Source of the DNA: a virus
Virus record (IMG/VR): IMGVR_UViG_3300010384_000002
DNA length: 64,000 nt
Reading direction: 5' to 3' (one strand)
Part shown: in pieces, positions 10,255 to 52,681 of the stretch
Numbering within the stretch: the stretch's first letter is position 1
Layout of the letters: the number at the start of each line of letters is the position of its first letter
Position numbers and translations under genes: made by a program
Notes under the pieces: model-generated
The model's input: only the letters and a program-made list of their open reading frames with translations
Databases searched by the model: none
Told to the model about the DNA's origin: nothing

Positions 10255-11729
10255 AACAGGCCTTTCATGTTGCGCTCGGCGTAGTAGCCGCCATCGTCGC
10301 CGGCGGCGCGCAGGGCGAAGCCGGTGCCGCGCTCGAACGAGAGCGTGGTCTTGAACGTGCCGTTGGGGATGAACTGGTGCGACACGGCCGTGACGTAGTG
10401 CAGCGCCGGCGCCAGGGTGCCGATCGCCGCGCTCACGTACATGCCGCGCTTGATGCGCTCGTTGCCGGCGACCACCATCTGCCCGTCTTCGAGGATCGAG
10501 TTGTCCTTGTTCTGCTCGGCCAGGACGCGGCGCCGCTCGGTGAGCCATGCGATCAGCCGGTCCGTTTCCGCCTGCGACTGTTCCGCCTTCATGGCGTCGG
10601 AATAGTCCTGTTCCGGCGCGCCGAGGGCGCTGGACACCTCCATTTTGCGAAAGCCGAAGCGCGCCGGGTGCGCGTTCACGTAGTCCATCAGAGCGTATTG
10701 CTCCACGTTGCTGGTGGCGGCCAGCTGGCTCACCTCGATGGTGTCCTGAATCTGCCAGCCGTAGTTACTGACCCAAAAATAGTTGGCCACGCCGGCATCG
10801 CTGCGGCCCTGCGTGATGCTTTCGATTTCCGTGGCCGGGATCTCGACGATGGAGTCGTTGGCTTCCTGCTGCGCGGCGGCATCGCCTTGGATCAGGTTGC
10901 CGTCCAGGTCCATGAAGCGGTTGGGCCGGATCACCAGCACCGACGTGCTGTCGCGGTCATCCACGAACATCTCGTTGAAGGGGCCGATGTCGAGGAACTG
11001 GGACAGCAGCTGCCGCACCGAGCCGTCGCTGAACAGCGACACCGACAGGGGCGACACGGTGCCGGCAATGGTCACTTCGGATTCCAGCTGGCCCAGCACC
11101 TGCGCGCCGACCAGGGCGCCGGTCGAGTCTCGAGTCAGGCGCGCCAGGAACGGGTTGATGACCTTTTCCAGCACCAGCTCGGCAAACTCCTTGGCGCTCA
11201 TGATCTTCGCGTCCGCCAGCTCGGCATATTTCTGGAAGAACCGGAACTCGGACATGATGTTGTCCCCGATCACCGAGTTGTTCAGGTAGTAGATGCGGAT
11301 GATGTCGAGCACCTTGCTGAAATCGGCGCCGCCCACGTGCACGCGGCGGTGCAGCTGGCCGCCCATGTTCGCGCGCGAGCGGTCCACGCTGGAAACGAAC
11401 CCGCGCAGCACCACGGGCAGGCCACGCGAGTACTCATGCGGCGAGCGCGCCATGCGGATCTCGATGATGTCGTTCGGCTCGATCAGGTAGCACAGCGATT
11501 CGCCATACTCGGACACGACGCGGTCGACCAGCGCAAGGTTCCACGTGCTCGCGGCGCCCAGCTGGTGCCGGATCGTGACCGGCTCGCCGGTCACAAGGTA
11601 GGCCGTCAGGTCCAGGCTCGTGAGCTCCTGATACCGCGCGGCCGCCTGCTTGCCGGTGGCCAGCGCACCGCGCCGCGCCGTCTTGATCAGGCGCACCTCG
11701 ATCTTCGGCGAATAGGTCCGGATCGTCAT
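10251..11729 (-). CDS. Tail hub/distal tail protein (unassigned)
   Basis: 492-aa ORF immediately after the tape measure gene, with overlapping stop-start signals at both ends. Confidence 0.6.
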   Translation of the reverse strand: MTIRTYSPKIEVRLIKTARRGALATGKQAAARYQELTSLDLTAYLVTGEPVTIRHQLGAASTWNLALVDRVVSEYGESLCYLIEPNDIIEIRMARSPHEYSRGLPVVLRGFVSSVDRSRANMGGQLHRRVHVGGADFSKVLDIIRIYYLNNSVIGDNIMSEFRFFQKYAELADAKIMSAKEFAELVLEKVINPFLARLTRDSTGALVGAQVLGQLESEVTIAGTVSPLSVSLFSDGSVRQLLSQFLDIGPFNEMFVDDRDSTSVLVIRPNRFMDLDGNLIQGDAAAQQEANDSIVEIPATEIESITQGRSDAGVANYFWVSNYGWQIQDTIEVSQLAATSNVEQYALMDYVNAHPARFGFRKMEVSSALGAPEQDYSDAMKAEQSQAETDRLIAWLTERRRVLAEQNKDNSILEDGQMVVAGNERIKRGMYVSAAIGTLAPALHYVTAVSHQFIPNGTFKTTLSFERGTGFALRAAGDDGGYYAERNMKGLL

Positions 11730-14623
11730 TGGCGCGCCCCTGCCGGCACCGGGCCGCCGCCGATGTGCACGCGCGCGGGCGCGGCCAGCGGCTCGCCCGT
11801 TTTTTCGCTACGCACGATCACGTCCACCACGTGGGATTGCGTGCCGCCGCCGGCGCGCACGTTCGAGCTGCCGGCCGCTGCCGGGATGCTGCCGAACGCG
11901 GCGTCGTACAGCGCCATCGAGTTGTCCGCGTACTGCTCGGCGCTTTTGCCGCTGCCGTTGTAGTTCCGGAAGGCGCCGCGCAGGCTGCCGCCCGATCGCC
12001 GCATGGCATCCGCGAACACCTCGGCGCCGGCCATGATGTTCGTTTCCGGGTCCTCCACGTTGTCATCGTTGATGCCGCGCGCCCCATCATAGCGGCTGTT
12101 GAGCTGCATGATGCCCCGGTCCAGGGTGCCGTTCGGGTTCTTGTGCAGCGCTCGATTGAACAGCCCGGATTCCTTGACGCCGATGAGCTTGAGCAAGCGC
12201 CAGTCGACGCCCGTTTTCTTGCCGGCGCGGCGGAAGATGTCGTCGTACGGGCTCGCGGCGCTCAGCTGCTGGGCCTGCTGCGCGATCTGGCGCGAGGATG
12301 CCTTGCTCAGCCCGCTGGCGAGGCTGCCGCCATTACCAGCGGTGTCCGGCGCCTTGGACGAGATGTCGGCGTATTGCTCCTCCAAGCTGGCGTGAAACTC
12401 TTTCGTGTAGTCGTCCGGATTGGCGCGCACCTTGGCCAGCATGGCGCCGATCGCGGCACGCCGGTCAAGGGGCGTGCCAGCCCCCTGCAGCTGGTTGGTA
12501 AGCACGGCGCGCGCTTTTTCGGTCGCGCCATAGGCGTCCTTGAACTTGCCTCCTGTGAGCGCGTTCGCCACTGCCGCTACGGCCTCGCGGATCGAGTTCG
12601 TCATGGGAATCAGCTTCGTGGCCACGTCGGTAGCCAGATTCTCCAGGCTCGCCATGTTCTTGCGGGAGACGTCGCCGTCCGTCATCTCCATGCCGTACTG
12701 CGGCGCCAGGCGCATGAGCACCGTTTTCAGGTCCTCATTGTTCTCGCCCGGCTTGGCCAGGGCGCCGTCGAGCATCTGGCGATCGCCATCGCTCATGCCC
12801 TGCGCCTTGAACCACGCGGCCTTGCTGCGCAGCTGCGACGGGTCGCCGTACTCGATGTCGAGCACGTTGCGCAGGGAGGTGCCGTTGAGCTTGGACGGGT
12901 CGATGTCGTATTTACGTGCCACGCCCATCATGGTGTCGCTCAAGCTGCCGCCGTGCAGGCTCGTCACCTGTTGCAGCATCGCGGCCTGCGAATCGGACAG
13001 GCCGAACAGACCCATCATGTTCTTGCGCTGCATGTCGCCGCTCATGCCGCCCATCTGGCCCATGGCGAGGTCGAAGAACGTGCGGCTGCCGCCCTGCGCC
13101 GCCAGCTTGCGATAGCGCTCCTGCGTGGCGCCGTCGGCCGCCTCGTAAGCCGCGCTGCCCTTGCCGAACACCTGCGCGGCCGTGCCGAACATGCCGGCGT
13201 CCTGCATGAAGCCCATGTCGACGGACGTCATGCCCGGCATCGCGCGCTGCAGGGCCCCGAGCAGGAAATTGCGCTGCGCTTCGCCGCCGGTGTGGCGGAA
13301 CGAGGCGTCGATGGTGCTCAACATGCCAGCGGCGCCAGCCGGGTCCAGGCCGGCCTGCCGCATGTTCAGCAGGTTGCCCATGGCGCCGACGTACCCGCCT
13401 GTATTCGCTGGCGACAGCGCGGCGCTCGTGGCGATCTTCGTGTACGTGGACACGGCCGACAGCACCTCGTCGGCTTTGCTGAACACGCCGGCGCGCGCGA
13501 TCGCCTCGCCCAGCATCATGGCGATGCGGCGGTTGTCGGCGTCGCCGCTGCTCACTTTTGTGTTACGCATCACGCCAAAGAAGCCGGCGCCGGCCTCCGG
13601 GTCCAGGCCCAGCATGCGCGCGAAGCCGCCCGCGCCGCGCAGCTCGGACGTGAACTGGCGCGAGCTCAGCCCGTCGGCACCGGACGTGTGCAGGTAGGTG
13701 GCGGCCAGCTTCGAGCCGTCGCCAAAGGACAGGTCGAGGTTCTTGGACGCGCCGCGCACGGCCTCGCGCAGCTGGTCGAACGTGCTGCTGGTGGCGCCCA
13801 TCTGGCGCAGCATGTCCGAGTAGCCAACGCCCTCCTCCTCGGCCGTGCCGATCTTCGCGCGCGTGGCTTGGATGCCGCGCACGGCCGCATACGCGAGTCC
13901 AGCGACACCCAGGCCGCCGGCGAGGCGCGATATGCCACCGAGCGACAGCAGGCCGCCAGCAGCACCACTTGCCGAGCCCAGCGCACCTTGCGCGATCGAG
14001 CCGCCCACGCCGCTGCCGGCCATGATCGCGCCACCGACGCCGCCGCCCGCGCGCCGCATCATGTCGGCCATGAAGCGCCCGAAATTCTGCTGGGCTGGCG
14101 CCGGCGCGCCACCAGGGGCGTGCAGCCCGAGCTGGCGCATCATGTCGTTGAACTGGCGCCGCGCCGCGACCTCGTTGTTGCCGAGCGATCGCCAGCCGCC
14201 GCCCAGCAGCGATTCCATGCTGACGCCCTGCAGCTTCTTGCGCATGGCCGGGCTGGCGTTGTTGTCGCGCCAGAACGAATAGTCCTTGCCGAACTCGCCA
14301 GCCTGCGCCGCGCTCATGTTGTAGCCGTTCTTGGCCAGGGCCGCCTGCAGGCGCTGGGCCTTGGCCAGCTCGTCGTTCAGCTTCTTGGCGTCGGCGGCCG
14401 CCTTGCCCATACCGGCGCCGGCCTTGCCGCCAGCCGCGCCCAGCGAATCCTCCAGCTTCTTCGCGTTCTTGGCCGCGTCGCCCAAGCCATCGACGAGCTT
14501 GTCGAGGCCCTTGGAATCCAGGCCCTGCCCCAGCGCATCCTTGAGGTCTTTGCCCAGGTCATCGACCTCTTTTTTCACGCCCGAGAGGTCGGCGCTGATG
14601 GGGATTCTAATTCCGCCGGTCAT
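11726..14623 (-). CDS. Tape measure protein with C-terminal lytic transglycosylase (SLT) domain
   Basis: 965 aa. It has a coiled-coil/Gly-Ala-Met-rich body typical of tape measure proteins. The C-terminus GVKESGLFNRALHKNPNGTLDRGIMQLNSRY...AGAEVFADAMR is an SLT-type motif. It follows the chaperone pair. Confidence 0.85.
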   Translation of the reverse strand: MTGGIRIPISADLSGVKKEVDDLGKDLKDALGQGLDSKGLDKLVDGLGDAAKNAKKLEDSLGAAGGKAGAGMGKAAADAKKLNDELAKAQRLQAALAKNGYNMSAAQAGEFGKDYSFWRDNNASPAMRKKLQGVSMESLLGGGWRSLGNNEVAARRQFNDMMRQLGLHAPGGAPAPAQQNFGRFMADMMRRAGGGVGGAIMAGSGVGGSIAQGALGSASGAAGGLLSLGGISRLAGGLGVAGLAYAAVRGIQATRAKIGTAEEEGVGYSDMLRQMGATSSTFDQLREAVRGASKNLDLSFGDGSKLAATYLHTSGADGLSSRQFTSELRGAGGFARMLGLDPEAGAGFFGVMRNTKVSSGDADNRRIAMMLGEAIARAGVFSKADEVLSAVSTYTKIATSAALSPANTGGYVGAMGNLLNMRQAGLDPAGAAGMLSTIDASFRHTGGEAQRNFLLGALQRAMPGMTSVDMGFMQDAGMFGTAAQVFGKGSAAYEAADGATQERYRKLAAQGGSRTFFDLAMGQMGGMSGDMQRKNMMGLFGLSDSQAAMLQQVTSLHGGSLSDTMMGVARKYDIDPSKLNGTSLRNVLDIEYGDPSQLRSKAAWFKAQGMSDGDRQMLDGALAKPGENNEDLKTVLMRLAPQYGMEMTDGDVSRKNMASLENLATDVATKLIPMTNSIREAVAAVANALTGGKFKDAYGATEKARAVLTNQLQGAGTPLDRRAAIGAMLAKVRANPDDYTKEFHASLEEQYADISSKAPDTAGNGGSLASGLSKASSRQIAQQAQQLSAASPYDDIFRRAGKKTGVDWRLLKLIGVKESGLFNRALHKNPNGTLDRGIMQLNSRYDGARGINDDNVEDPETNIMAGAEVFADAMRRSGGSLRGAFRNYNGSGKSAEQYADNSMALYDAAFGSIPAAAGSSNVRAGGGTQSHVVDVIVRSEKTGEPLAAPARVHIGGGPVPAGARQ

Positions 14624-14912
14624 CGATTAAATCCTCGAAATCATCACTTGGCGGGGCGGCATCCGTCGGCTCGGGACGCTCGATCCCGAACAGCTCGTCC
14701 ATCCGCTCCTCGTTTTCATCAAAGTTCTCGTCCACGACCTCATCGGGCACGCCCTTCTCGGCGTAGTGGTGCGCCCAGTACAGGGTCAGGACCTGCTCAT
14801 CATCAAGCGCCAGCCAGCGCGGGTCCGTCGGCAGGACGTTGTAACGGCTCTGCACCGAGAACTGCACCGTCTGGTGCAGCCGGCGCGCCACCTTCTTGGC
14901 CCGCTGCTCCAT
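14607..14912 (-). CDS. Tail assembly chaperone, downstream (T-like) frame
   Basis: 101-aa ORF with near-100% GC3 and an acidic C-terminus. Its reading frame is open from 14945. It overlaps the upstream chaperone ORF by 110 nt and the tape measure gene by 17 nt. Confidence 0.7.
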   Translation of the reverse strand: MEQRAKKVARRLHQTVQFSVQSRYNVLPTDPRWLALDDEQVLTLYWAHHYAEKGVPDEVVDENFDENEERMDELFGIERPEPTDAAPPSDDFEDLIDDRRN

Positions 14913-15258
14913 GTCCTTGAACGACCGGGCGGACTCGAAAGGAGTCTAGTTTTTCCTTCAAGGCGATGTAGAGCTGGAAGATCGAGGTTTCCAGCTCCGG
15001 ATTTTCCGTCAGGTCGATGGCCTCGATGTCTTCCCAGCCGGGCGGGCAATCCACCATCAGCGCGCCATAGCACGCGACCAGATCGGCGTGCGTGCGCATC
15101 ACCTTATCCTGCTCGTCACCCTGACTGTTCGGGCCCAGGATGCGCGAGACGATCGCGTCGATTTTGATCTGCGCGCCGTAGTTCTTGCGGTTGAAGCGGA
15201 ACACGCCGACCCCTTCGAGGGGAACGGTAAAATCATTCGGCTTTGGCTGGTTTTTCAT
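14803..15258 (-). CDS. Tail assembly chaperone, upstream (G-like) frame
   Basis: The real start is MKNQPKPNDFTVPLEG at ATG 15258. The coding signal (GC3) collapses after about 14938 although the frame stays open to 14803. See the frameshift finding. Confidence 0.6.
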   Translation of the reverse strand: MKNQPKPNDFTVPLEGVGVFRFNRKNYGAQIKIDAIVSRILGPNSQGDEQDKVMRTHADLVACYGALMVDCPPGWEDIEAIDLTENPELETSIFQLYIALKEKLDSFRVRPVVQGHGAAGQEGGAPAAPDGAVLGAEPLQRPADGPALAGA

Positions 15259-15275
15259 ATGAATTGGATGGGAAA

Positions 15276-15578
15276 TTAGGGAAGTTGGCGGCCCAGGATG
15301 CGGGCGGCGCGCGCACGGCGCTCCCAGTCCTCGGCGCATTCTTTGCAGCAGAAAACGTCTTCGGATTCGAGGCTCAGCGCCTCGCCGCAGTCGTTGTGAC
15401 AGGACAGGCCGAGCTCTTGCACTTCGGGATCGTCGCGGCCGCGCTGGGCGGCGATCTGGCGTGCCTCGGCCAGCTTCTTGCGCTTGAGGTCGATGACCGA
15501 GACGGGACGGCGCGCGGCGTAGATGTTGGCCTCGCGCTCGATGGCTTCGTAGTTGGATGCGATATCAGTGGTGTCCAT
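15276..15578 (-). CDS. Small Cys-rich protein (possible zinc ribbon)
   Basis: 100 aa with C-terminal CHNDCGEALSLESEDVFCCKECAEDW. No TM segment or lipobox. Its start lies at the foot of an 11-bp hairpin. Confidence 0.6.
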   Translation of the reverse strand: MDTTDIASNYEAIEREANIYAARRPVSVIDLKRKKLAEARQIAAQRGRDDPEVQELGLSCHNDCGEALSLESEDVFCCKECAEDWERRARAARILGRQLP

Positions 15579-15610
15579 GATGGGGTTCCTTTACTCCATG
15601 GAACCCCATC
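15579..15610 (-). promoter_or_regulatory. 11-bp perfect hairpin abutting start codon 15578
   Basis: GATGGGGTTCC-N10-GGAACCCCATC then ATG. The AAGGAA SD lies in the 3' arm. Confidence 0.7.
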
Positions 15611-15616
15611 ATGGCG

Positions 15617-16168
15617 TCACGACCTGACGTACTGGAGGAGGTAAATCAGGCGTTCCAGGGCGCGCCGTGCGGTGAGGCCAGGGAGCACGCGGCCACCGGC
15701 TTTGTTCCAGAGGCAAAAGGCGTCAGCCGCCGCCTGCAGCTGGCCCCGCGTGGTGAAGCGGGCGACGGATGACACGCCGAAGGCGCCCAGGCCGATGTTA
15801 TAGGCGAGGCTCGTGCACGCGGCCGCGCGCTCGGTCTCCAGCAGGTGCAGCGCCGGGCACTTGGCGTACACCTTGGCCAAGAACAGCACCAGCTTGTGGC
15901 GCAGGCGCAGCTCGGCATATTCGGGCGTCCACACGTCGCCCTCGTTGACGCCCTCGGTTTCGCCGTAGCCGTTCGTCCAGGGCTTGCCGGACAGGCCGCG
16001 CAGGTCGGCCGGGATCTCGGCGCGGCCGGCCATGTAGGCCTTGAGCAGGCCAGCTTTGGCCAAGGCAGCGTAGAGCGGCGAGGCCGGGTCCGGGTAGGCG
16101 CGCAGCGCCAGGCCCTCGGACTGCTTGACGAGCCCCACCAGCAGCTCGAAGGCCTCGGACGGCTTCAT
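15617..16168 (-). CDS. Endolysin, lysozyme (GH24-like) family
   Basis: The real start is MKPSEAFELLVGLVKQSEGLALRAYPDP...WTNGYGETEG at ATG 16168, in an ATGA overlap with the holin stop. It has an E-D-T-like lysozyme motif with an insertion. Confidence 0.7.
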   Translation of the reverse strand: MKPSEAFELLVGLVKQSEGLALRAYPDPASPLYAALAKAGLLKAYMAGRAEIPADLRGLSGKPWTNGYGETEGVNEGDVWTPEYAELRLRHKLVLFLAKVYAKCPALHLLETERAAACTSLAYNIGLGAFGVSSVARFTTRGQLQAAADAFCLWNKAGGRVLPGLTARRALERLIYLLQYVRS

Positions 16169-16674
16169 TTCTTGGCCCGCTCGAACGTGCGCCCGACGAA
16201 CCAGAAGCCCAGGATAGCCGACAGGATCGCGGCGTCCTCGGTTGTCCAGCACTGGATGATCGAGGCCCAGGGGTCGCTCGTGCGCAGCGCCACCACGATC
16301 ATGGCCGTCTTGACGATGCCGTAGCAGCCCAGGAAATAATAGGTGGTGAGCGGGCGCACCAGCATGTTGAGGGCGTCAACCCACCAGATGCCGACCTTCT
16401 GCATCTGGCTTTGCAGCGCGGCCGACGTGGCGTCCATCATCTTGAGGGCCGTGCTGATGTCGCCTTGCAGTTGGGACTCGCTCATGGTCGCCGCGTGCTG
16501 GGTGTTGATTTCGGCGGTGCGGTTGGCGCCTTTCAGCGTCTCCAGCTGCACCTGCTTGTCCATCATGGCCAGCTCGTGGCTGTTGTCCGAGCGCTTGTTG
16601 AACAGCGTCAACAGCTCGGGCAGCATGCGCATGAGGCCGCCGCCGAGGGCCGACAGAATCGTGATCAGGGTCAT
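16165..16674 (-). CDS. Holin (3-TM, gene-transfer-release type)
   Basis: The real start is MTLITILSALGGGLMRMLPELLTLF at ATG 16674, with a GGAGA SD 5 nt upstream. Hydrophobic segments at the N-terminus and near the C-terminus. It lies directly upstream of the endolysin. Confidence 0.65.
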   Translation of the reverse strand: MTLITILSALGGGLMRMLPELLTLFNKRSDNSHELAMMDKQVQLETLKGANRTAEINTQHAATMSESQLQGDISTALKMMDATSAALQSQMQKVGIWWVDALNMLVRPLTTYYFLGCYGIVKTAMIVVALRTSDPWASIIQCWTTEDAAILSAILGFWFVGRTFERAKK

Positions 16675-16692
16675 TTGAATCTCCAGGTGGGA

Positions 16693-16717
16693 GCCGCCAC
16701 GGGCGCGCCGTGGCGGC
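16693..16717 (-). other. Stem-loop between the tube and holin genes (no U-tract)
   Basis: 10-bp stem GCCGCCACGG/CCGTGGCGGC with loop GCGCG. Confidence 0.6.
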
Positions 16718-16724
16718 GGGTGGA

Positions 16725-17147
16725 TTACAGGCCGGTACCGCTCACGTCCAGCGCGGCGAACTGCGCGTTGCTCGTGACGATGCGGTGCGCGGAGACTTCG
16801 ACGCTGCCGCCGGTGTAGGTACAGCCCTTGTACTCGCGCAGCACGTCGTTCTCGTCCTTGCCGTAGGTGGTGAACGTGAACACGTTGCCCTTGAGGACGA
16901 CGTCGGAGTTTTCCGCCGTGATGCCGGCTTGACGGCACAGATCCTTGATCAGCACCATCTTGGACACGCTCAGCGAGTGGCGCGCCTGACCGGGCACGTA
17001 CTCGACCACTTTCGCATCACCGATGCCCGACGCCGGCTCGTGGCCGTAGTCGTCGCTCATCTGGACGCTTTGCACCAGCCCGATATCCTTGCCGTCGAAC
17101 GAGACGACGGTGCGATTACCCGAGCGGACTTTCAGATTTTTCTGCAT
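16725..17147 (-). CDS. Tail tube protein
   Basis: 140-aa ORF directly after the sheath gene, with the size and position typical of myophage tube proteins. Confidence 0.75.
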   Translation of the reverse strand: MQKNLKVRSGNRTVVSFDGKDIGLVQSVQMSDDYGHEPASGIGDAKVVEYVPGQARHSLSVSKMVLIKDLCRQAGITAENSDVVLKGNVFTFTTYGKDENDVLREYKGCTYTGGSVEVSAHRIVTSNAQFAALDVSGTGL

Positions 17148-17163
17148 GTTTCACCTTTGAAAG

Positions 17164-18882
17164 TTACGCCGAAGCCGAGCCGCTGTACGGGACAGCGGCC
17201 ACCTCTTGCAGCACATAGTTGGTCGGCAGCACGATGGCCGCCTCGTAGGCGATCCGGATGGCGGTGCCATCGATCCAGCCTTTCAGCTTGCGATACGGCG
17301 GGTTATCCGCATCACCGACGATCACGCCAGGGCCCATCGGCTCAGCCACCGCGCAGGCGTCCAGGGCAGCGCGGACGTACGTCAGCGCGTTGTTCAGGCT
17401 CATCGGCCCGAGCTTCTGGCCGCGCACCTTGTCGGCCGCTTCCTGCGCCGAGCGGCGCACGTAATCGGCGGCAGAGCCGGCCGAGACTTCGGTGCGCAGC
17501 AGGTTGTCCGGGTTCGAGGTGTAGGTCGTGACCGACTGGACCACCTTGACGGTGCCGTTATCGTCTTCCAGCGGCAGCACGCCCGCCTGCAGCAGCGCAT
17601 CGGTGTCGGTCGGGTTAGCCAGCTTGCGCTCGACGCCCTGCACCTTGAGCGACTTGGCGGTCAGCGGGGTGCCCGGCGCCATGCTCGCGGCCATGCCGGC
17701 CAGGATTGCGGCGACGACATACGGCGGGTACAGCGTGAGCTTGTTCTGGCCGTTGTAGTCGTACACGCCCAGGTGGGTATAGGCCGTGCGGTCCGAGTTG
17801 AGCACGGCGGCGGCGGCGCTGGCCACCGCGTCGGTGGTGCCGACATCGGGACCCACGAACGAACGGCGCATTTTCTTGGTGGCGTTCGACATGAACACGC
17901 AATGCGCGTCGACCATGGCGTGCACGGCCGGCAGCGGCGACAGCGCGGCGATCCACTGCACGTCGTCCTTCTTGAGCACGTCCAGGGCGCTCTGCCATTC
18001 CGCGTTCGTGACAACGCCGTCGGATGCGCCGGACAGGTACGTGAAACCGACGTTCGTCGGCGGGGCGCCAGCGCCGACCGGGCGCGAGGCATCCACGAAG
18101 CCCTCGGCAATGCCGTTGAACCAGTCGATGCACGCCTGCAGGTGCGCGGTGACGCTGACGGCTGCGCTCTTGCAATCGGTGGCGGCCATCGTGTCCAGGC
18201 CGTTCAGGGCTGGTTTCGTGCCGTTGTTGTCCAGCACCGACGCGGAAAAGCCCGGCTCGGTGTTGATGCGGTCGACCAGCTCCTGAATCGTCGGGAAGTC
18301 GTTCAGGTCCAGGGCCGTGTTGGTGGCGCCGTAGATCAGCGTGACGGTGGTGTTGGCCACGGCGATGGTGGCGGTTGCCTGCGCGCCCGTGTAGCGCACC
18401 GACAGCGCATTGCGCGCGATGTTGTCGCCGCTGTAGTAGTTGTTGCCGTACTGGGTGGTGAGCTTCTTGCCCGCGATCGAGCCGGATTCTACCTTGTACT
18501 TGATCGAGTTGTTCGGGCGGCCGTAGTCGGTCGACACCAGGGCGATCGATGGCTGGGTCGCCGCGTCCTTGAGCGTGGCCGAGGCCTGCGTGGCCGGGTT
18601 CACGCGCACGAATTTCACCGTCGACGGGGAACCCGCTTCGCTCGACGAGGCAAACGCCTTTTCGATCGCCTTGAGGGTGCTGTCGTCGCCCTTGAGGGTG
18701 TTGCGGGCATCATCCGGCGAGCTGAACGACAGCACCGTGAACGGCTTGCCGCCGGCCGAGCGGCCTAAAATCGCGACGGCGTTGCCGGTGCCGGCGCTCG
18801 CCTCGTACATGGCCGCATCGTTGATGGCCGACGCGCTCGTCGGGGTGATCAGCTGGCGGCCGCCAAAATACACTTTCGACAT
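17164..18882 (-). CDS. Tail sheath protein
   Basis: 572 aa. Position, size and the N-terminal pattern (MSKVYFGGRQLITPTSASAINDAAMYEASAGTGN) are typical of contractile sheath proteins. Confidence 0.8.
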   Translation of the reverse strand: MSKVYFGGRQLITPTSASAINDAAMYEASAGTGNAVAILGRSAGGKPFTVLSFSSPDDARNTLKGDDSTLKAIEKAFASSSEAGSPSTVKFVRVNPATQASATLKDAATQPSIALVSTDYGRPNNSIKYKVESGSIAGKKLTTQYGNNYYSGDNIARNALSVRYTGAQATATIAVANTTVTLIYGATNTALDLNDFPTIQELVDRINTEPGFSASVLDNNGTKPALNGLDTMAATDCKSAAVSVTAHLQACIDWFNGIAEGFVDASRPVGAGAPPTNVGFTYLSGASDGVVTNAEWQSALDVLKKDDVQWIAALSPLPAVHAMVDAHCVFMSNATKKMRRSFVGPDVGTTDAVASAAAAVLNSDRTAYTHLGVYDYNGQNKLTLYPPYVVAAILAGMAASMAPGTPLTAKSLKVQGVERKLANPTDTDALLQAGVLPLEDDNGTVKVVQSVTTYTSNPDNLLRTEVSAGSAADYVRRSAQEAADKVRGQKLGPMSLNNALTYVRAALDACAVAEPMGPGVIVGDADNPPYRKLKGWIDGTAIRIAYEAAIVLPTNYVLQEVAAVPYSGSASA

Positions 18883-18891
18883 GGTTTCTCC

Positions 18892-19128
18892 TTATGCCGG
18901 GCGGTTGATAAATGCGTCGAAGCGCAGCGCGTACGCCGATTCGACGTCCACGACGCGGCCGGCAAGCGCTTCTTCCGCATGAAAGGCGCTGATCAGCTCG
19001 ACGCGGCGGTCGACGGCCGACAGGCGCGTGCAGTACTCCTCCAGCGACAGCGGGATTTCCTCGTTTTCCAGCGCGCCTTGTGCGGCGCCCTCGTCATTGG
19101 TGGCGGTTTTGGGCATCTGTTTCCTCAT
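18892..19128 (-). CDS. Small hypothetical protein
   Basis: MRKQMPKTATNDEGAAQGALENEEIPLSLEEY... The internal ATG 19116 has the better SD (AGGAAA). The track ORF to 19419 is over-extended. Confidence 0.55.
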   Translation of the reverse strand: MRKQMPKTATNDEGAAQGALENEEIPLSLEEYCTRLSAVDRRVELISAFHAEEALAGRVVDVESAYALRFDAFINRPA

Positions 19129-38006: not shown

Positions 38007-38258
38007 ATGACGGCAGAAGAAACTCGCGAAAACGACAACGACGGCTTCCCCACGAAAGAGGAAGTGGCGGAAGCACGGCGTATCGCCGGCGTCAGCCAAG
38101 AGCGCGCGGCGCAGTTGGTGGGTCTGACGTCTCATACCCGTTGGAGCGAATACGAGCGCGGCGTCCGCCGCATGGACCCGATGCGGTTCGAGATGTTCAA
38201 GATCAAGACCGGCCAGCATCCCGACTACGTGCCCCGTGGTCAGGCCATCACCTCTTAG
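38007..38258 (+). CDS. XRE/Cro-type HTH regulator
   Basis: MTAEETREND...AGVSQERAAQLVGLTSHTRWSEYERGVRRMDPMRFEMFKIKTG. AAGGA SD 6 nt upstream. The track ORF from 37644 is over-extended. Confidence 0.75.
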   Translation: MTAEETRENDNDGFPTKEEVAEARRIAGVSQERAAQLVGLTSHTRWSEYERGVRRMDPMRFEMFKIKTGQHPDYVPRGQAITS

Positions 38259-40929
38259 GCATCCAGAAAAAGCACGCCACGTCGCGAGCGCGCACCCTTA
38301 GCTCGCGCTCCAGGCAGTACTCCGCATCCGGGTCGAAGTTCTCGCACCCGCCGCAGGTCCCCATCTCCTCCACCATCTGCTGCTGTTCCGCGATCGCCTT
38401 GACCACCGGGCTGTTCGCCACCGCGCCGGCATTGGCCGTCGCCGTTGCCGGCTTGCTCTCCTCGGGGAACAGGAACATGGTCACGCCGTGCGCGCGCGCC
38501 CAGGCCACGTTCAGCAGCATGTAGGCGTACGAAAAGTGCGGGTCGATGCCGACCTTGACCACGCGCCGCGTGTATTTCTTTTCCTCGTCGTCCTTCTCGA
38601 CCACCAGGGCGGTGCGCGTGAAGTGCATGAACACGCGGTCCTTGAGCAGTGCGATGCGCACGCGCTCGCCCTTCGTGCCCTTTTCCAGCACCTCCTGATG
38701 CAGGCCGTCCGGGTTCGGGAACACCGTCACCTTGTTCTGGATGCGCTTCATGGCGACCTGCATGCACTTGTACTGGTCGAGCATGACGCTGTAGCGGTCT
38801 CGATCCTCCTCGTCGGTTTTTCTTTCGGCGTTCGACAGCGCGGCATCACCCCACCGCATCATGTCGTCGTCAATTTTTTGATAGCCGGCCAGGAACACCT
38901 TGCCGGGGTGACGGTTGGCGAAGCGCTTGGCGTCGTTGTAGTTCGGCAGTGTCTCGACCACGCAAACAGAGATGCCGTACTGCTCCATGAGCTCGTCGCA
39001 CCGATCGAACGGGCTGGCTTCCGGGTTTTCCGGCGTGGGCTGCGTCAGGATCTCCTCGACGTGCACGATGCCCAGGTGGCCCGTGGGCATGCGAATACCG
39101 ATGATGGCGACGTTGTACCCGCCCATCTGGTCGATGCCCATGTAGGCGCCGCTCGCGCGCGCCATCCATTGCAGGCCCAGGCGCATGCCCTCGGCCGCGC
39201 AGGCGTTAAGCATTTCGAGGTTCACCGGCACCTGTGACGGGTCGGTGTACGGCTTGCCCAGCACGCGGTTCCAGAAGTTCTTGAGGTCGTCCGCGTTGTG
39301 GTACTTGGTGATGATGTTGCGCGCGCTGATCGTGGGCGACAGGAATTGCGGGAAGTGCAGCGACACCGGCAGGATCGTGCCGTCCGCATCGACCCAGCGC
39401 TGCACCTCGATGGTGTTCTTCTTGTCGGTCGCGATCGTGACCCACTGGAGCGTGCCACGATGCGCGCGCCATTCGCCAATTTGCGGATCGTCGATCCAGC
39501 CATCGCAGCTCTTGCACACGTAGCGGTATTCCCGCGTGTCGTCGTCGTACCGGATGCAGGCAGGGAAGTACGAGTCGAGCGCGTGGTGTTCGCCGCAGTT
39601 CGGGCACAGCGTCCAGAACTGGTGCATCGTGCCCTGCTTGTACAGCCAGTCGATATCCTCGTCCGGCCAGTTCGCGGTCGACCCAGCCAGGGTGAACTTG
39701 ATGCGCGAGCCCGAGAGACGTTCTTTCGTCTTCTCGATCTGCTCCTTCGTCATCTCCTGCACCTCGTCCAGGGACAGGACGTCCAGCGGGATCGATTCGG
39801 TGGCGCCCTTGCCCGAGGTCCACATGAAGTGAAAGCGCGAGCGGCCCATGACGCGCACCAGCACATTGCCCTCGCCCTTGCTGGCGCCGGTGACAGCGTC
39901 GGTGGTGAGCAGCTGGTGGGCGGCCGGGATGGTGCGCAGGATCGGCATGAAGCGAATGGAGGACTTCACGCCGGCGAGGTTCATGTCCGGCAGGTACATG
40001 CCGATCTTGCACGGCATGAACTTGATGGCCATGTAGATCATGGCCAGCATCTCCATGACGGTGAACCCGACCTGCGTGCACTTCATCATCACCACGATGC
40101 GCTCGAACGCTTCCTCGATCGTTCCGGGGATCTGGTCGTACACGAACCACATGGCCGGCCGGTTATCGAGCTCGAACGGCATGTCGTCCACTTGCAGGCC
40201 GCTGGCGGCCAGGCGCAAGCACCAGTCGCGGAACGACTCGTCGGGCCCGATGATGGCCTGTTCGTCGGTGAGCTCGATGCCGTCGACGAAGGCGCCGCAC
40301 CGTTCCTGCTGGAAGGCCTCGGGCTTCATCCGCGCGCGATCGCGCTCCAGGGCCTCCATGTCAGCGTGCGGGTTCTCCTCCGTGGCCATGTGGAACACGG
40401 CGCTGTCCCGATCATCGTCGGCCATCCGGGCCATGCGCGCGAAGTCGTTGAACATGCCGGCCGGCTTGCCGAAGAACCACGCGCGGCCACGGTATCGGGT
40501 CAGCAGCGGTTCGATCGCGTTGGCCCAGGCGTCGGCCAGCTGCTCGATGTGCGGCGCGTCGTCGACGACGACCAGGGCGAACTGGTCCCACAGCCGGAAC
40601 GGCTTGTCCATGGCCACCAGCTGGATGACGCCGCCGCCGGTGCGCAGCACGATGCGATCGCGGTCCATGCGGCTCTGCGCGGAAATCAGCGGCTCGATCA
40701 TGCCGTAGATGCGGCGCTTGACCGCGTCGACCTCGTTTTCGGAGGGCAGCAGGATGGCGACGGGGAAGCCCCGGATGGCGCCGAACTTGGACGCCAGGGC
40801 GATGTCGATGGCCAGGGTCGTCTTGCCCGAGTCAATGCCGCCGGCCACGACGTTGAAGCGCGCCGGCGACGCGGCAATCCGCGCCTGCAGGGGAGTGAGC
40901 TTGGGGAGCTTGATGCGGAGTTCAGCCAC
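38248..40929 (-). CDS. Terminase large subunit: N-terminal Terminase_6-like ATPase fused to a complete GpA-type terminase
   Basis: The first module has Walker A GGIDSGKT, Walker B LVVVDD and ...FQQERCGAFVD. It is followed by the KCTQVGFT P-loop, a CPNCGEHH...CKSCDG zinc ribbon and a nuclease region typical of lambda gpA-like terminases. The proposed start is GTG 40929 (GAGG SD). ATG 41076 would need ~49 low-GC3 codons that contain regulatory motifs. Confidence 0.75.
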   Translation of the reverse strand: MAELRIKLPKLTPLQARIAASPARFNVVAGGIDSGKTTLAIDIALASKFGAIRGFPVAILLPSENEVDAVKRRIYGMIEPLISAQSRMDRDRIVLRTGGGVIQLVAMDKPFRLWDQFALVVVDDAPHIEQLADAWANAIEPLLTRYRGRAWFFGKPAGMFNDFARMARMADDDRDSAVFHMATEENPHADMEALERDRARMKPEAFQQERCGAFVDGIELTDEQAIIGPDESFRDWCLRLAASGLQVDDMPFELDNRPAMWFVYDQIPGTIEEAFERIVVMMKCTQVGFTVMEMLAMIYMAIKFMPCKIGMYLPDMNLAGVKSSIRFMPILRTIPAAHQLLTTDAVTGASKGEGNVLVRVMGRSRFHFMWTSGKGATESIPLDVLSLDEVQEMTKEQIEKTKERLSGSRIKFTLAGSTANWPDEDIDWLYKQGTMHQFWTLCPNCGEHHALDSYFPACIRYDDDTREYRYVCKSCDGWIDDPQIGEWRAHRGTLQWVTIATDKKNTIEVQRWVDADGTILPVSLHFPQFLSPTISARNIITKYHNADDLKNFWNRVLGKPYTDPSQVPVNLEMLNACAAEGMRLGLQWMARASGAYMGIDQMGGYNVAIIGIRMPTGHLGIVHVEEILTQPTPENPEASPFDRCDELMEQYGISVCVVETLPNYNDAKRFANRHPGKVFLAGYQKIDDDMMRWGDAALSNAERKTDEEDRDRYSVMLDQYKCMQVAMKRIQNKVTVFPNPDGLHQEVLEKGTKGERVRIALLKDRVFMHFTRTALVVEKDDEEKKYTRRVVKVGIDPHFSYAYMLLNVAWARAHGVTMFLFPEESKPATATANAGAVANSPVVKAIAEQQQMVEEMGTCGGCENFDPDAEYCLERELRVRARDVACFFWMPKR

Positions 40930-40958
40930 TGGGTGCCTCTGGTAGATCGAGGCACCCA
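40930..40958 (-). promoter_or_regulatory. 10-bp perfect hairpin abutting terminase GTG 40929
   Basis: TGGGTGCCTC-N9-GAGGCACCCA then GTG. The GAGG SD lies in the 3' arm. Confidence 0.7.
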
Positions 40959-41109
40959 GTGTTGCGTCACGACTCTGATTATCAGAGGGAAGTGGCCGAA
41001 CGGACGCTGCAGGGCGGGGCTCGGACCAACTGGGCGAATTTGCGAAATGCCCCTGATTATCACGGACATTTTGCATCTAACCGACGTAACGCCTCCTCTC
41101 CCCTATAAA

Positions 41110-47456: not shown

Positions 47457-50400
47457 TCACACGGTCCTTGCGAAAGATTTAACGAATATTACCACCCGCT
47501 TACGCAGAGCGGCAGTTGCTGCTGGGAAAATGACGAGCGATTTCCCCAGCTTGCCCAGGCCTCCCACCTCGGCCACATAGCCCTCGTGCGGCGGCAGCGC
47601 GAGCAGGTCCAGGGTGATACCGTCCGGGCTGGAGGCGTTGCCCTTCTTGACGCCCAGGACGACGAAGCGCTGGCCCATCAGGGTGGTCACCTCCATCTCG
47701 CCCCCGCCGTTCTTGTGCACGTAGTTGCCCTCGGCGTCTTGGCCCGAGCCGGCGAAGCGGCCCGACCCGAGCGACGCCATGGCCTTGGCGCCCTTGGCGA
47801 ACTTGATGTTCAGGTAGGCGCCCGAGCCGAATTTCGCGTTGTCGCCCCAGTCCTTGAAGATCGACGTGCACATGGAGTCAGCATTCTGGAACACCAGGCC
47901 GGCGCCCTCCTTGAGCAGTTGCTGCTTCATCGTGTCCGGCAGGTTCATCCAGCGGCCGACGGTTTCGCCCTCCTCGAACTCATAGGCCTCGTTGTAGATC
48001 GTGCTGGCCAGCTGTTGCGCGCCGCCGCTGTACGAATGGCCCTTCGAGCTGATGCTGATGGTCTTGTCGCCCTTGTTCCAGAAGCGGTTCGCTGCGCCCG
48101 AGTCCTGAATCGAGTTGACCAGGGCCTTGGTGGCCGTGGACACGCCCTGATACCACTTCTTGGCCTTGGTCACGAAATCGGTTTTGAGATAGCTGGTCTT
48201 CGGCGGGACCAGGTCCTTGACCACATCGGCGCCCACGTGGCCGAGCTTCATCCAGAAACCGATGACCTTGTCCGAGGAGATGGTGTTGATGTTCTCGCCC
48301 GGCTTGATGTAGCCGGCCGCCTCCGACACTTCCTCGATCGAGCCGCCGCCGATCGGGGGCAGGTCCAGGCCTTCAACGGGCGGGTGCGCGATCGCGGACA
48401 GCAGGTCGCACAGCGCGGCGTGGTGGTTCTTGATGTCCTTGGACGGGTGCTGTCCGATCGGCTTTTTGCCCAGGTAGGCGCCGGTTTCCTTATCGTAGGC
48501 GTCGTAGTGGTAGTCCTGCAGCGCCTTGAGATTGCCCTGCTTGGCGAACTCGATCAGGGCCGCGTCGTCGACCGTGTTCTGGTCGTTGATGTGCTTCTTG
48601 GACGACAGCGGGCCGCCCTTGCCGGGGTAGTTGTTGAAGTCGATGGGCGGCGGCAGGTCGGACGTGTTCACGGCCAGCTTGGTGATGTCTGGCGCCGGCG
48701 CGTTCCACGGGTCGGCGATGCCCAGCTTTTTCAGGATGAACTCGCGGCGCGCCACCAGCTTGGACGCCAGGGCCTCCTGCTCGGCGCGCGTGCCCGGACC
48801 GAACGTACGGCACAGCTTATCGATCTGGTTCGGGTGCATCTTGGCCAGCACGGCGCCGCCGGTCTCGAGATCCGCCGGCGTGATCTTGCCGAACACGGCG
48901 GCCGAATTCGCGTTCTTGGCCGGGTCCAGCAGCGTGTCCAGCTCGGTGACGGTTTCACCGAAGGCGTCGCCCTTCTTGCTGCCCTGCGCGCGGTAGATCA
49001 GCGAGCCGCCGACGTCGACGCGCACGGCCTTGCCGTCCTTGAGCAGCATGTTGTCGTTGGACAGGCCGACGACGTCCCAGTTGGCCAGCCACGCATCGAA
49101 CACGAACCCTTTGTGCGCGCCCTCGGCGCCGGCCAGCGCGGCCGCGTCACCCTTCGTCAGGCCATCCACCCACTTCGAGGCGATGCCCAGTTGGCCCGCG
49201 CGCTTGACCAGGCGCAGCTCGGGCACGTCGACACCCAGCATCTGGTAGAACTTCGCGGCCAGCAGCTCGTTTTTCACCGTGTCCGGATCGCTCGGGAATT
49301 TGCAGTACCACTCCTGACCCTTCGCGTCCTTGAAGCGGCCGCCGGGGTTGGAACCCTTCTGCGGCCCGGTCTGCTCCCACGTGTCCGCCACCATGGCGCT
49401 GACCTTCCCCACCTTCACGGTGGTGGGCACCGACATCGTCGGCGCGGCGCTGGCCGTCGACGCGGCAGCTGCTGGGGCTGGAGCGGCCGCCGGTGGCTCG
49501 CTGGCGCCCTTCGTGCCATCCATCGCAGCCACGAGATACTTGGCATATTTGGCCATGGCTTGCGCATTGGCGCCATAAGTCGAGCCGTCCGGGTTGATGG
49601 CCTTCCAGCCCACCGCCTTCACGTGCCCAGCTGGAGTCATCTTGACCAGCTTGGCCAAGCCCTCCGCGCCGCCGCTTTCCGCCGCCGCCTTGAGGGCCTT
49701 CATCGTCTTGGTCATCTTGATGGAGTTTTTGCCCGACAGCTTCGGCATGGGCACGCTCGCGGCTTTCTCCTTGAGCACCTTGGGATCGGTACCCATCTTG
49801 TGCCACCGGCCGTTCTCGAACACCAGCATGCCGTCGGCGCCCTGCTTCGTGTCGCCGTCCTTCGGGCCCTGCTCGGCGGCTGCCGGCGCGGTGGCGCCGC
49901 TCTGCTCGGCCTCCAGCTTCGCATACGCCTGCACCGCCCAGGCCAGCACCGGCTCGAAACCCTGCACCTCGTCGATGCCATCGATCAGCTTGCCCAGCTT
50001 CTTGGTCGACTTCTCGGCGTAGGCGGACTGGACCGCCTGCAGCGCCATCTGTGCGCCGCTGCTCAGCTGGGAGACATCGGGCAGCGGAATGTCCGCCGGC
50101 GCGGCGGGCTTGGCTTGCAGGTAGGCCAGCGCCTGCTCGCCATACGCCAGGATCAAGCCGGCGTTCGTGAACGGCGGGATCGGCTTGTCCCCGAATGGCG
50201 CCTTGAGTTCGGCAAGGGCGCTCTCGATCGTCGCGGGGATGCCCTGCTCCAGGCCCACCTCGATCGCATGCGCGTACGCATGGAGGCCGGTTATCTCGGG
50301 CTTTTCTGGCTTCGCCGGCGGCGCGGCGGGCGCGGTACCGGCCAGCGCGTGCTCGTGCAGCTGGACGAGTTTGTTTTCGGCCTTGATCGCGCTCATGTCG

Positions 50401-52634: not shown

Positions 52635-52681
52635 GTGCAAACCTCATGGGAGATTGCTCTACCGTACCGTCACGACAGGCG

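Follow-up and report, generated by a model that had tools for sequence, protein, structure and literature searches.

Two overlapping open reading frames on the minus strand of the window (the whole 64,000-nucleotide stretch of viral DNA analyzed, IMG/VR record IMGVR_UViG_3300010384_000002) very probably encode the tail assembly chaperone of a ~95-kb myovirus in two forms, a short gpG-like and a long gpGT-like one, with the long form produced by a +1 shift of the ribosome at UCC_UUU_CGA. The +1 recoding is well supported by the comparison of relatives, all of which share the split, with the downstream (T) frame lying +1 in 37/37 and an in-frame TTT_CGN at the junction in 37/37. An earlier, sequence-only reading of this region had placed the downstream frame +1 rather than in the classical -1 register, and this is borne out throughout the set.

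Gene anatomy and chaperone assignment

The order of genes on the minus strand is sheath, tube, two inserted genes, G (15258-14803), T (ending at 14607) and tape measure, with the chaperone pair placed between the tail tube gene and the tape measure gene and the latter lying directly 3' of the pair (Table 1). The inserted genes encode an endolysin and a DksA-like protein; members of the sister clade, the group of Bordetella phage PHB04, have the pair directly after the tube gene. The conserved domain of the zero-frame product comprises residues 1-107 and is followed by a poorly conserved Gly/Ala-rich tail (residues 108-151), and the AlphaFold model of G has pLDDT values >70 across most of residues 9-107 and <50 for 109-151. 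Relative to the upstream ORF the second frame lies at +1 (or, equivalently, -2) and is open from 14945 to its TAG at 14609-14607, terminating 17 nt within the tape measure gene. The two frames overlap by 46 codons, the zero frame running 44 codons past TTT. The TAG that closes the T frame just 5' of the shift site is not kept in relatives, where this frame is open for 2 to 52 codons upstream.

Table 1. Features of the chaperone region and neighboring tail genes, in window positions
Feature	Position	Strand	Remarks
Tail sheath gene	17164-18882	(-)	phrog_279 match, 7.6e-65
Tail tube gene	16725-17147	(-)	syntenic homologues carry PF26461 Phi812_tail_tube
Zero-frame ORF, gpG-like short form of the tail assembly chaperone (probable)	14803..15258	(-)	151 aa plus TGA; start ATG 15258, end TGA 14805-14803
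TAG closing the T frame just 5' of the shift site	14946..14948	(-)	not conserved
10-nt block ACTCCTTTCG	14936..14945	(-)	identical in 9/10 genomes of the window's clade
Proposed +1 shift cassette UCC (E site)_UUU (P site)_CGA (A site)	14935..14943	(-)	comparative; TCC 14943-14941, TTT 14940-14938, CGA 14937-14935
+1-frame T part, C-terminal extension of the predicted 216-aa fusion	14607..14936	(-)	109 codons plus TAG
Internal T-frame ATG, 8 codons past the junction	14910..14912	(-)	start of a 101-aa product under the alternative of independent initiation
Tape measure protein gene	11726..14623	(-)	965 aa, C-terminal SLT lytic transglycosylase domain

The profile phrog_25000, annotated as "tail assembly chaperone," is matched by the fused product at positions 37-218 of 230 (E = 3.4e-12) and by the T part by itself at positions 122-218 of 230, and a match of the fused product to phrog_4988 has E = 0.0065. 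A Pfam search with the chaperone pair gave no match. The top Foldseek match of the G model in the PDB is the HK97 tail assembly chaperone 2OB9, a weak similarity that is not significant (E = 0.064, TM 0.28-0.42). In the alignment of relatives the T part contains a conserved block, RAK..T..FW.R..Y...PTDPRxL.

GC3 of frame 0 in the window falls from 0.8-0.93 to 0.33-0.4 at ~14945, where that of frame +1 rises to 0.87-1.0, so that the coding signal passes from one frame to the other exactly at TCC_TTT_CGA (14943-14935). As anatomy, the two overlapping frames are seen in the window together with the GC3 switch, and the split is kept in 37/37 relatives. From this arrangement we infer that a short protein and an N-terminally identical long protein would be made. 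The collapse of GC3 in the upstream frame and the near-100% values downstream had been described in the sequence-only reading, whose coordinates for the ORFs, codons, TAG and ATG all proved correct on re-examination; the length it gave for the fused gene, 217 aa, is corrected to 216 aa (107 + 109).

Conservation of the junction among relatives

The comparison set comprises 37 distinct genomes or contigs, drawn from both isolates and metagenomes and with identities down to ~30%, and includes nine cultured 86-95 kb myoviruses, in eight of which the site was read directly. Among the relatives are Bordetella PHB04, Pseudomonas Jeremy and Touem01, E. coli ECML-606-1, Aeromonas ST4, Yersinia fHe-Yen8-01 and Morganella Mecenats66. 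Members of the clade infect Escherichia, Pseudomonas, Bordetella, Aeromonas, Yersinia and Morganella.

With the first 31 sequences aligned, TTTCG is the sole invariant stretch. The G following TTTC is invariant, yet the +1-frame residue that it encodes varies (E, A, D, G and V). The 10-nt block differs in the tenth genome of the window's clade, L016, where TCT replaces TCC. Codon bias was assessed against the other codons of the same genes. The Phe codon at the site is TTT in 37/37 compared with 31% of other Phe codons, TCY accounts for 28 of the 30 E-site Ser codons compared with 29% elsewhere, and CGA occupies the A site in 16/37 compared with 7% elsewhere. For TTT, TCY and the invariant G of CGN, conservation at synonymous positions exceeds the demands of the protein sequence. 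Across the family the E-site codon is UCC in 16, UCU in 12 and another codon in 9 (n = 37), and UCC in the E site is a preference that is not absolute, as in PA-X mutagenesis. In the window itself (51 ORFs, 16,201 codons) TTT makes up 10% of Phe codons, CGA 6% of Arg codons and CTA, which lies three codons 5' of TTT, 1% of Leu codons; just one other in-frame TTT_CGN is present in these ORFs compared with 20 TTC_CGN.

The A-site codon is CGC, the commonest Arg codon, in 18/37 relatives. Because half of the family has this common codon, normally decoded well, simple starvation at the A site cannot account for shifting in general, and the conserved requirement is CGN rather than a rare codon per se. 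The rarity of CGA, which the sequence-only reading had judged by eye, is confirmed for the window and extends to the 16 relatives that share the codon but not to the 18 with CGC.

Mean GC3 over the 37 genomes is 0.73 in frame 0 and 0.57 in frame +1 before the junction, compared with 0.47 and 0.76, respectively, after it, with frame +1 above frame 0 in 36/37 genomes. Mean pairwise amino acid identity over the first 30 codons past the junction is 0.43 in one frame versus 0.42 in the other within the window's clade and 0.32 versus 0.32 in the whole set. The frames being equal in this measure, protein conservation alone fails to show that the +1 frame is used directly after the site, and its use there is indicated by GC3, by the block conserved deeper in the T part and by the absence of start codons. 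ATG, GTG or TTG is absent from the first 27 T-frame codons in 17/37 genomes and ATG from the first 42 in 18/37, the first possible T-frame start lying anywhere from codon 3 to codon 44 past the junction. The invariant T residues A120 and T130 are 13 and 23 codons past the junction, and conserved T-part residues precede any possible start codon in about half of the genomes.

Alignment with homologues, which the earlier reading had called for, gave neither an uninterrupted ORF nor a -1 arrangement. Ten protein homologues (56-72% identity) are 134-164 aa long and cover about half of the fused query, and a search of 5.8 billion clustered proteins gave no uninterrupted homologue. A -1 arrangement is present in 0/37 relatives, the -1 frame not leading into the T domain, and a classical slippery heptamer X_XXY_YYZ is rejected with the T frame +1 in every relative.

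The 70 nt downstream of the site have a mean folding z-score of +0.07 over 31 sequences, with no shared hairpin. Upstream of the site the two clades differ. GGAG or GAGG is present with a 5-6 nt spacer in 26/27 genomes of the sister clade, where this Shine-Dalgarno (SD)-like element probably adds stimulation, whereas GGAG, GAGG or AGGA starting at -13 to -8 is found in 0/10 genomes of the window's clade, in which UCC is almost invariant and the A site is mostly the rare CGA.

Proposed shift and alternative readings

In the proposed mechanism most ribosomes would pass UCC_UUU_CGA in frame and terminate at 14803, yielding the 151-aa protein with its 107-aa folded domain and disordered tail. A minority would shift +1 while peptidyl-tRNA-Phe occupies the P site at UUU and the A-site codon CGA has yet to be decoded; the tRNA-Phe would re-pair from UUU (14940-14938) to UUC (14939-14937), its fully Watson-Crick codon. 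Decoding would restart at GAG (14936-14934), giving the 216-aa fusion ...KLDSF-ESARSFKDMEQR... with its C-terminal part in the +1 frame, and the signal would be a short cassette, UCY_UUU_CGN, without downstream RNA structure. That the shift occurs, that it is +1 rather than -2, that a minority of ribosomes make it and that the E-site and A-site codons contribute is what we infer from the sequences compared. The sequence-only reading had preferred the same re-pairing with CGA in the A site and is favored by the comparative evidence. It had also confined any fusion to about 3 codons; the shift would be mechanically possible anywhere in the 46-codon overlap, and its assignment to TTT_CGA comes from the comparison of relatives.

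An improbable alternative is that the frames are two independently initiated genes expressed with no recoding, the T protein starting separately at ATG 14912, in which case the conservation of TTT_CGN would reflect protein-level or other constraints. The 101-aa product would overlap the upstream ORF by 110 nt and, judged from this genome alone, may be made independently. The window does have this ATG 8 codons past the junction with AGGA nearby, a separate short ORF is called by gene callers or GenBank annotators in every relative, and frameshift-free production of the chaperone forms of T4-like phages has been argued for by Vladimirov et al. 2022 (as cited in PMC12846349). However, the AGGA is just 1 nt 5' of the ATG, which is poor spacing, and in 17/37 genomes the first start is at or beyond codon 28, past the invariant T residues. 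GC3 changes frame at TTT and not at the called starts, and amino acid constraint explains neither TTT in 37/37 nor an invariant G encoding five different +1-frame residues.

A very low probability is assigned to the +1 frame being reached in another way, either by a -2 ribosomal shift as in phage Mu or by transcriptional slippage adding or removing a base. A -2 shift leads into the same frame, is documented for phage Mu tail genes (PMC5009743) and is not separable from +1 by sequence alone, but tRNA-Phe would then have to pair with CCU in the window, and in relatives with CUU, AUU, GUU and others, codons that are neither cognate nor conserved, whereas the +1 move lands on UUC in 37/37. A Mu-type -2 site was rejected for the same lack of a cognate codon. 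For transcriptional slippage the T run is 3 nt (4 if the E-site codon ends in T), far below known slippage tracts. A sequencing or assembly indel splitting one gene of ~217 codons, raised in the sequence-only reading and prompted by nothing beyond the frame change in a single sequence, is of negligible probability and is excluded by the same split in 37 independent genomes or contigs over this range of identities, by the window's exact G product being on record from 5 contigs and by the lack of an uninterrupted homologue in the clustered proteins.

Relation to known frameshift sites

Shifts of -1, -2 and +1 are recorded across tailed-phage chaperones (Atkins 2016 review, PMC5009743), and a +1 shift in these genes is unusual but not unprecedented. 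The pair resembles lambda gpG/gpGT, whose frameshift is described by Levin 1993 and by Xu, Hendrix and Duda 2004 (both as cited in PMC5009743), with two predicted products sharing an N-terminal domain, a position directly 5' of the tape measure gene, a long form that would arise by recoding close to where the conserved G domain ends, and an arrangement kept independently of sequence similarity. It differs in that the proposed shift is +1, not -1, and lacks an X_XXY_YYZ heptamer, the zero frame continues for 44 codons past the site compared with a few in lambda, and the endolysin and DksA-like genes separate the tube from the chaperone.

The bacterial +1 site of prfB (release factor 2) and the shift-prone UUU_Y sites share with the proposed mechanism the slip of a P-site tRNA by +1 onto an overlapping cognate codon; a slowly filled A site and an upstream SD-like element are the stimulators there and may act likewise in parts of the phage family. 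In prfB the spacer of this element is 3 nt, compared with 5-6 nt in the sister clade. A prfB-type site was rejected for the window, where a sense codon, CGA, and not a stop is in the A site, and the SD-like element is found in 0/10 genomes of its clade.

The +1 site of influenza A PA-X is UCC_UUU_CGU, verified by mass spectrometry (Firth et al. 2012, PMC3498833). In both cases ORF2 is in the +1 frame with no evident 3' stimulator, the Ser codon is kept as UCC though five synonymous alternatives exist, and the window's CGA, like CGU in birds and mammals, is uncommon in its own codon usage. The phage case involves a bacterial ribosome, a DNA virus and an unrelated protein, its A-site third base varies (A, C, G or T) across the family, and it is known from sequence comparison, whereas PA-X was established by experiment. 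The amalgavirus +1 motif is UUU_CGN (PMC5052127), and the overlap in the window likewise begins with UUU followed by CGN and leads into a +1 ORF2; the E site of the window holds UCC. The predicted phage site is well supported as a further case of this already known cassette.

In the HF1-group haloviruses, Dyall-Smith et al. 2020 (PMC7230728) proposed that the tail chaperone genes have a +1 site at TTT-CGC, and the HF2 site, read directly, is AAG_TTT_CGC_AGA_TAG. Gene function, a position between tube and tape measure in a myovirus, the +1 shift and a TTT_CGN core in a locally conserved block are common to both, and both are comparative proposals. The haloviruses differ in having an archaeal host, with six genomes compared, and HF2 in having no UCC and a site two codons before the zero-frame stop. 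With tblastn at E <= 1e-3 to 1e-2 no halovirus was matched. The 5-9 nt signal, having the same functional position in bacterial myoviruses and archaeal HF1-group viruses, may be either ancient or a product of convergence.

The influenza biases, UCC in the E site and CGN read by tRNA-Arg in the A site, recur independently in the phage clade. A tentative extension is that UCY_UUU_CGN could be a minimal +1 signal on ribosomes of all three domains, with the phage clade the first natural, deeply conserved bacterial example. If so, the recurring biases would point to a conserved ribosomal mechanism and not to host-specific codon starvation, and the two clades would boost the shift in different ways, one with an SD-like element and the other with UCC plus the rare CGA. 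To our knowledge, work on the PA-X-type cassette has been confined to eukaryotic systems, in which it functions inefficiently and is difficult to dissect. A natural conserved case in E. coli and Pseudomonas phages would permit direct genetic and biochemical tests of the reason for the CGN need in the A site and the UCY preference in the E site.

In the nine cultured relatives the pieces of the pair are labelled only "hypothetical protein," and none of the seven records inspected feature by feature records a frameshift. A simple rule for annotation repair, to look for TTT_CGN in frame where the conserved G domain ends and to make a +1 join after it, would mend the cultured-phage records and many metagenomic contigs.

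Gene neighborhood and reading frames of the chaperone pair

A tailed-phage structural module makes up the window, which codes for a large terminase, portal, major head protein, tail sheath, lysozyme, DksA-like zinc-finger protein and baseplate proteins. The upstream ORF of the chaperone pair is termed G and the part in the second frame is termed T. PHROG 25000, "tail assembly chaperone," is matched by T alone over profile positions 122-218 of 230 and by the fused product over positions 37-218 (E = 3.4e-12), so this profile represents proteins with both halves. The fusion is counted here as 216 amino acids, replacing the 217 of the sequence-only reading. Neither chaperone ORF has a match in Pfam. 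In the AlphaFold model of the 151-aa G ORF, confidence is high across most of residues 9-107, residues 109-151 are disordered, and the folded domain of G stops exactly at the proposed shift site. The best PDB match of the model is the HK97 tail assembly chaperone, a weak match (E = 0.064) that agrees with a chaperone and is counted neither as proof nor as a test passed.

Features of the window discussed in the text
Feature	Coordinates	Strand	Remarks
Tape measure-like protein	11726-14623	-	965 aa; SLT domain; directly downstream of chaperone pair
T frame	closed by TAG 14948-14946, open to TAG 14609-14607	-	one base forward of G (+1, equivalently -2)
Proposed shift codon TTT	14940-14938	-	
Leu codon CTA	14947-14949	-	three codons upstream of shift TTT
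G ORF	ATG 15258 to TGA 14805-14803	-	151 aa
DksA-like zinc-finger ORF	15276-15578	-	
Endolysin gene	15617-16252	-	Phage_lysozyme
Tail tube gene	16725-17147	-	assigned from its syntenic homologues with PF26461 Phi812_tail_tube
Large terminase subunit ORF	38248-41076	-	942 aa
1,727-aa ORF	47457-52640	-	no PHROG match at E <= 1e-5

The endolysin and DksA-like genes lie between the tube and chaperone genes in the window's clade (10 genomes), and in the sister clade, the Bordetella phage PHB04 group (27 genomes), the chaperone gene directly follows the tube gene. The tape measure of three close relatives (L001, L006 and L008) has a Glucosaminidase domain (PF01832) where the window has its C-terminal SLT lytic transglycosylase domain, which suggests that this protein has exchanged its cell-wall-degrading domain. 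The large terminase subunit is well over the usual size with its PHROG matches split between residues 58-278 and 278-865, and could have been extended at its N terminus, arisen by fusion or gained an inserted element.

Reading of the frames bears out the ORFs, the stops and the +1 offset of the second frame that had been noted from the sequence alone. The junction reads ...GAA AAA CTA GAC TCC TTT CGA GTC..., with TCC, TTT and CGA as the E, P and A sites, and the terminal TAG of the T frame is placed 17 nt within the next gene. In this sequence of 65% GC, GC3 marks coding frames strongly. At about 14945 the GC3 of frame 0 falls from 0.8-0.93 to 0.33-0.4, as the sequence-only reading had described, and that of frame +1 climbs there to 0.87-1.0. 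Across the 16,201 codons of 51 long ORFs with high GC3 in the window, TTT accounts for 10% of Phe codons, TCC for 22% of Ser codons and CGA for 6% of Arg codons, the last figure agreeing with its designation by eye as rare. Elsewhere in these ORFs an in-frame TTT_CGN occurs only once, compared with 20 occurrences of TTC_CGN.

Three codons before the proposed shift TTT, seven of the 10 genomes of the window's clade (the window, L001, L003, L004, L007, L008 and L009) have a Leu codon of very low usage, CTA or TTA (1% and 0.4%, respectively, of the window's Leu codons), and in five of these seven it creates a +1-frame TAG just ahead of the site. This codon might serve to pause the ribosome or to prevent it from shifting too early, or might simply reflect shared ancestry.

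Conservation of the split and of the proposed shift site

A megablast of window positions 11000-19000 against phage genomes gave no match, and relatives were therefore reached via proteins. When the fused query was run against 5.8 billion protein clusters, every match was an ORF of 134-164 aa that spanned about half of it, with no uninterrupted homologue among them, and the window's own G product is recorded from five contigs, the longest of 95,435 bp. The DNA of relatives comprised eight loci from the protein search, seven cultured phages from GenBank (Bordetella phage PHB04, Pseudomonas phages Jeremy and Touem01, E. coli phage ECML-606-1, Aeromonas phage ST4, Yersinia phage fHe-Yen8-01 and Morganella phage Mecenats66), 24 IMG/VR contigs and three contigs from bacterial assemblies. 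Removal of duplicates left 37 distinct junctions, with protein identity down to about 30% and GC from 49% to 67%.

T is offset by +1 from G at all 37 junctions, and the alignment of homologues proposed as a check gave no uninterrupted ORF. A sequencing or assembly indel in a single gene, put forward as an alternative, is rejected on the basis of this common split, the result of the homologue search and the recovery of the G product from five contigs.

At every junction (37/37) an in-frame TTT followed by CGN is positioned exactly at the end of the conserved G domain and the start of T-frame similarity, and TTTCG is the sole stretch invariant across all 31 aligned sequences. The block ACTCCTTTCG is identical in nine of the 10 genomes of the window's clade, the tenth (L016) having TCT for TCC. 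With other codons of the same genes as controls, the P-site Phe codon is TTT in 37/37 compared with 31% elsewhere, the E-site Ser codon is TCC or TCT in 28/30 compared with 29%, and the A-site Arg codon is CGA in 16/37 compared with 7%. TTTC is always followed by G, although the +1-frame residue begun by this G may be Glu, Ala, Asp, Gly or Val, and the zero-frame tail after the site is otherwise unconserved; the constraint therefore acts on nucleotides. In 36 of 37 genomes the site is where the GC3 signal leaves frame 0 for frame +1. The first 30 codons past the junction are a poorly conserved linker with equal mean pairwise amino acid identity in the two frames (0.43 versus 0.42 in the window's clade; 0.32 versus 0.32 overall). 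This measure does not discriminate, and frame use was judged instead from GC3, from where start codons lie and from the conserved block further on.

Proposed recoding and its alternatives

The change of frame noted earlier is confirmed as an observation, and its preferred explanation, a +1 slip of the P-site tRNA-Phe, is supported at the sequence level by the TTT_CGN site, the common +1 offset and the switch in GC3. The tRNA paired with UUU through a G:U wobble would move +1 onto UUC, a slip that would be favorable because UUC gives tRNA-Phe full Watson-Crick pairing. We infer from sequence comparison which way the ribosome shifts, how efficiently it does so and what the flanking codons contribute.

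One alternative is that T has its own start codon and is made without recoding. For the window alone a separate start is possible, with ATG 14912 only 8 codons past the junction. The explanation fails for the family, however, as the first T-frame ATG, GTG or TTG is found anywhere from codon 3 to codon 44 past the junction, 18 of 37 genomes are without any ATG in the first 42 T-frame codons and in 17 of 37 the first ATG, GTG or TTG lies at or beyond codon 28. The invariant T-frame residues A120 and T130 (numbered in the alignment of fused products) are 13 and 23 codons past the junction, upstream of any start in those genomes, and are therefore translatable there only by ribosomes coming from G. 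A -2 shift and transcriptional slippage were considered and rejected.

Returning to the +1 slip, the rare CGA in the A site holds for the window, but CGC is present in 18 of 37 genomes, and a simple "hungry A-site codon" is therefore ruled out as a general trigger; the kept feature of the A site is CGN. A downstream RNA stimulator is likewise rejected, as 70 nt folded in 31 sequences gave a mean z of +0.07 against dinucleotide shuffles with no shared hairpin. This fits a minimal, low-efficiency cassette of the kind needed for a minor long-form product; for comparison, the lambda G:GT ratio is about 30:1 (PMC5009743). No phage-encoded tRNAs able to modulate the site were found.

The two clades differ in their probable auxiliary signals. 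The window's clade keeps UCC in 9/10 genomes and the rare CGA in 7/10, and has GGAG or GAGG at the Shine-Dalgarno-like position in 0/10, so Shine-Dalgarno stimulation is rejected for this clade. In the PHB04-like clade (among loci L011-L044), GGAG or GAGG is placed 5-6 nt upstream of UUU (positions -12 to -6) in 26 of 27 genomes. This spacer is longer than the 3 nt of prfB, and the element may act by pausing or pushing the ribosome.

Relationship to known frameshift systems

Tail chaperone genes are a classical setting for programmed frameshifting. Versions with -1, -2 (phage Mu) and +1 shifts occur across tailed phages and haloarchaeal viruses (PMC5009743), and the SEA-PHAGES data used for PRFect contain 350 forward compared with 2,368 backward candidate slippery-site motifs (PMC10274946). 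The neighboring family Vandenendeviridae has recently been argued to use a -1 GTTTTT site (PMC12846349). In bacteria, UUU_Ynn is singled out as highly liable to shift +1, with no stop codon needed (Atkins et al. 2016, PMC5009743; Schwartz and Curran 1997 on UUU-pyrimidine sites, as cited there).

In sequence the site matches the +1 frameshift site of influenza A PA-X, whose UCC_UUU_CGU is the same as the phage UCC_UUU_CGA apart from the last base. The PA-X shift was shown by mass spectrometry, mutagenesis supports P-site tRNA-Phe slippage on UUU_C while CGU occupies the A site, and replacement of UCC makes the shift 40-70% less efficient (Firth et al. 2012, PMC3498833). The plant amalgavirus +1 motif is UUU_CGN (Nibert et al. 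2016, PMC5052127), and a TTT-CGN +1 shift has already been proposed for chaperone genes of six haloviruses of the HF1 group (PMC7230728). The proposed +1 site of Halorubrum phage HF2, a member of this group, reads GAG_AAG_TTT_CGC_AGA_TAG (locus L045, 31341-31366, minus strand) and shares the TTT_CGC core; it differs from the window in having AAG rather than UCC before TTT and in lying two codons ahead of the zero-frame stop.

The chaperone site thus belongs to an already known kind of system. In the literature searched, a chaperone-gene cassette with the PA-X-like UCC, conserved over a large clade of 86-97 kb Proteobacteria myoviruses, appears not to have been described. No paper in that literature links Pseudomonas phage Dolphis with "frameshift," and a paper discussing PHB04 (PMC9503643) mentions neither frameshifting nor a chaperone. 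All nine cultured members found have the pieces of the gene pair labeled only "hypothetical protein," and the seven cultured records inspected feature by feature contain no frameshift annotation. The site is of interest for its match to a eukaryotic viral recoding signal, complete apart from the last base, and for the tractable bacterial hosts in which that signal could be studied. Bacterial assemblies also contain relatives of the pair, again with the TTT_CGN +1 site, on contigs of 87-231 kb (L039, a Steroidobacter MAG; L040, Nitrosomonas sp. Nm132; L041, a Paraburkholderia MAG), which could be prophages or phage genomes that were co-assembled, and which give a hint of the hosts that the group infects.
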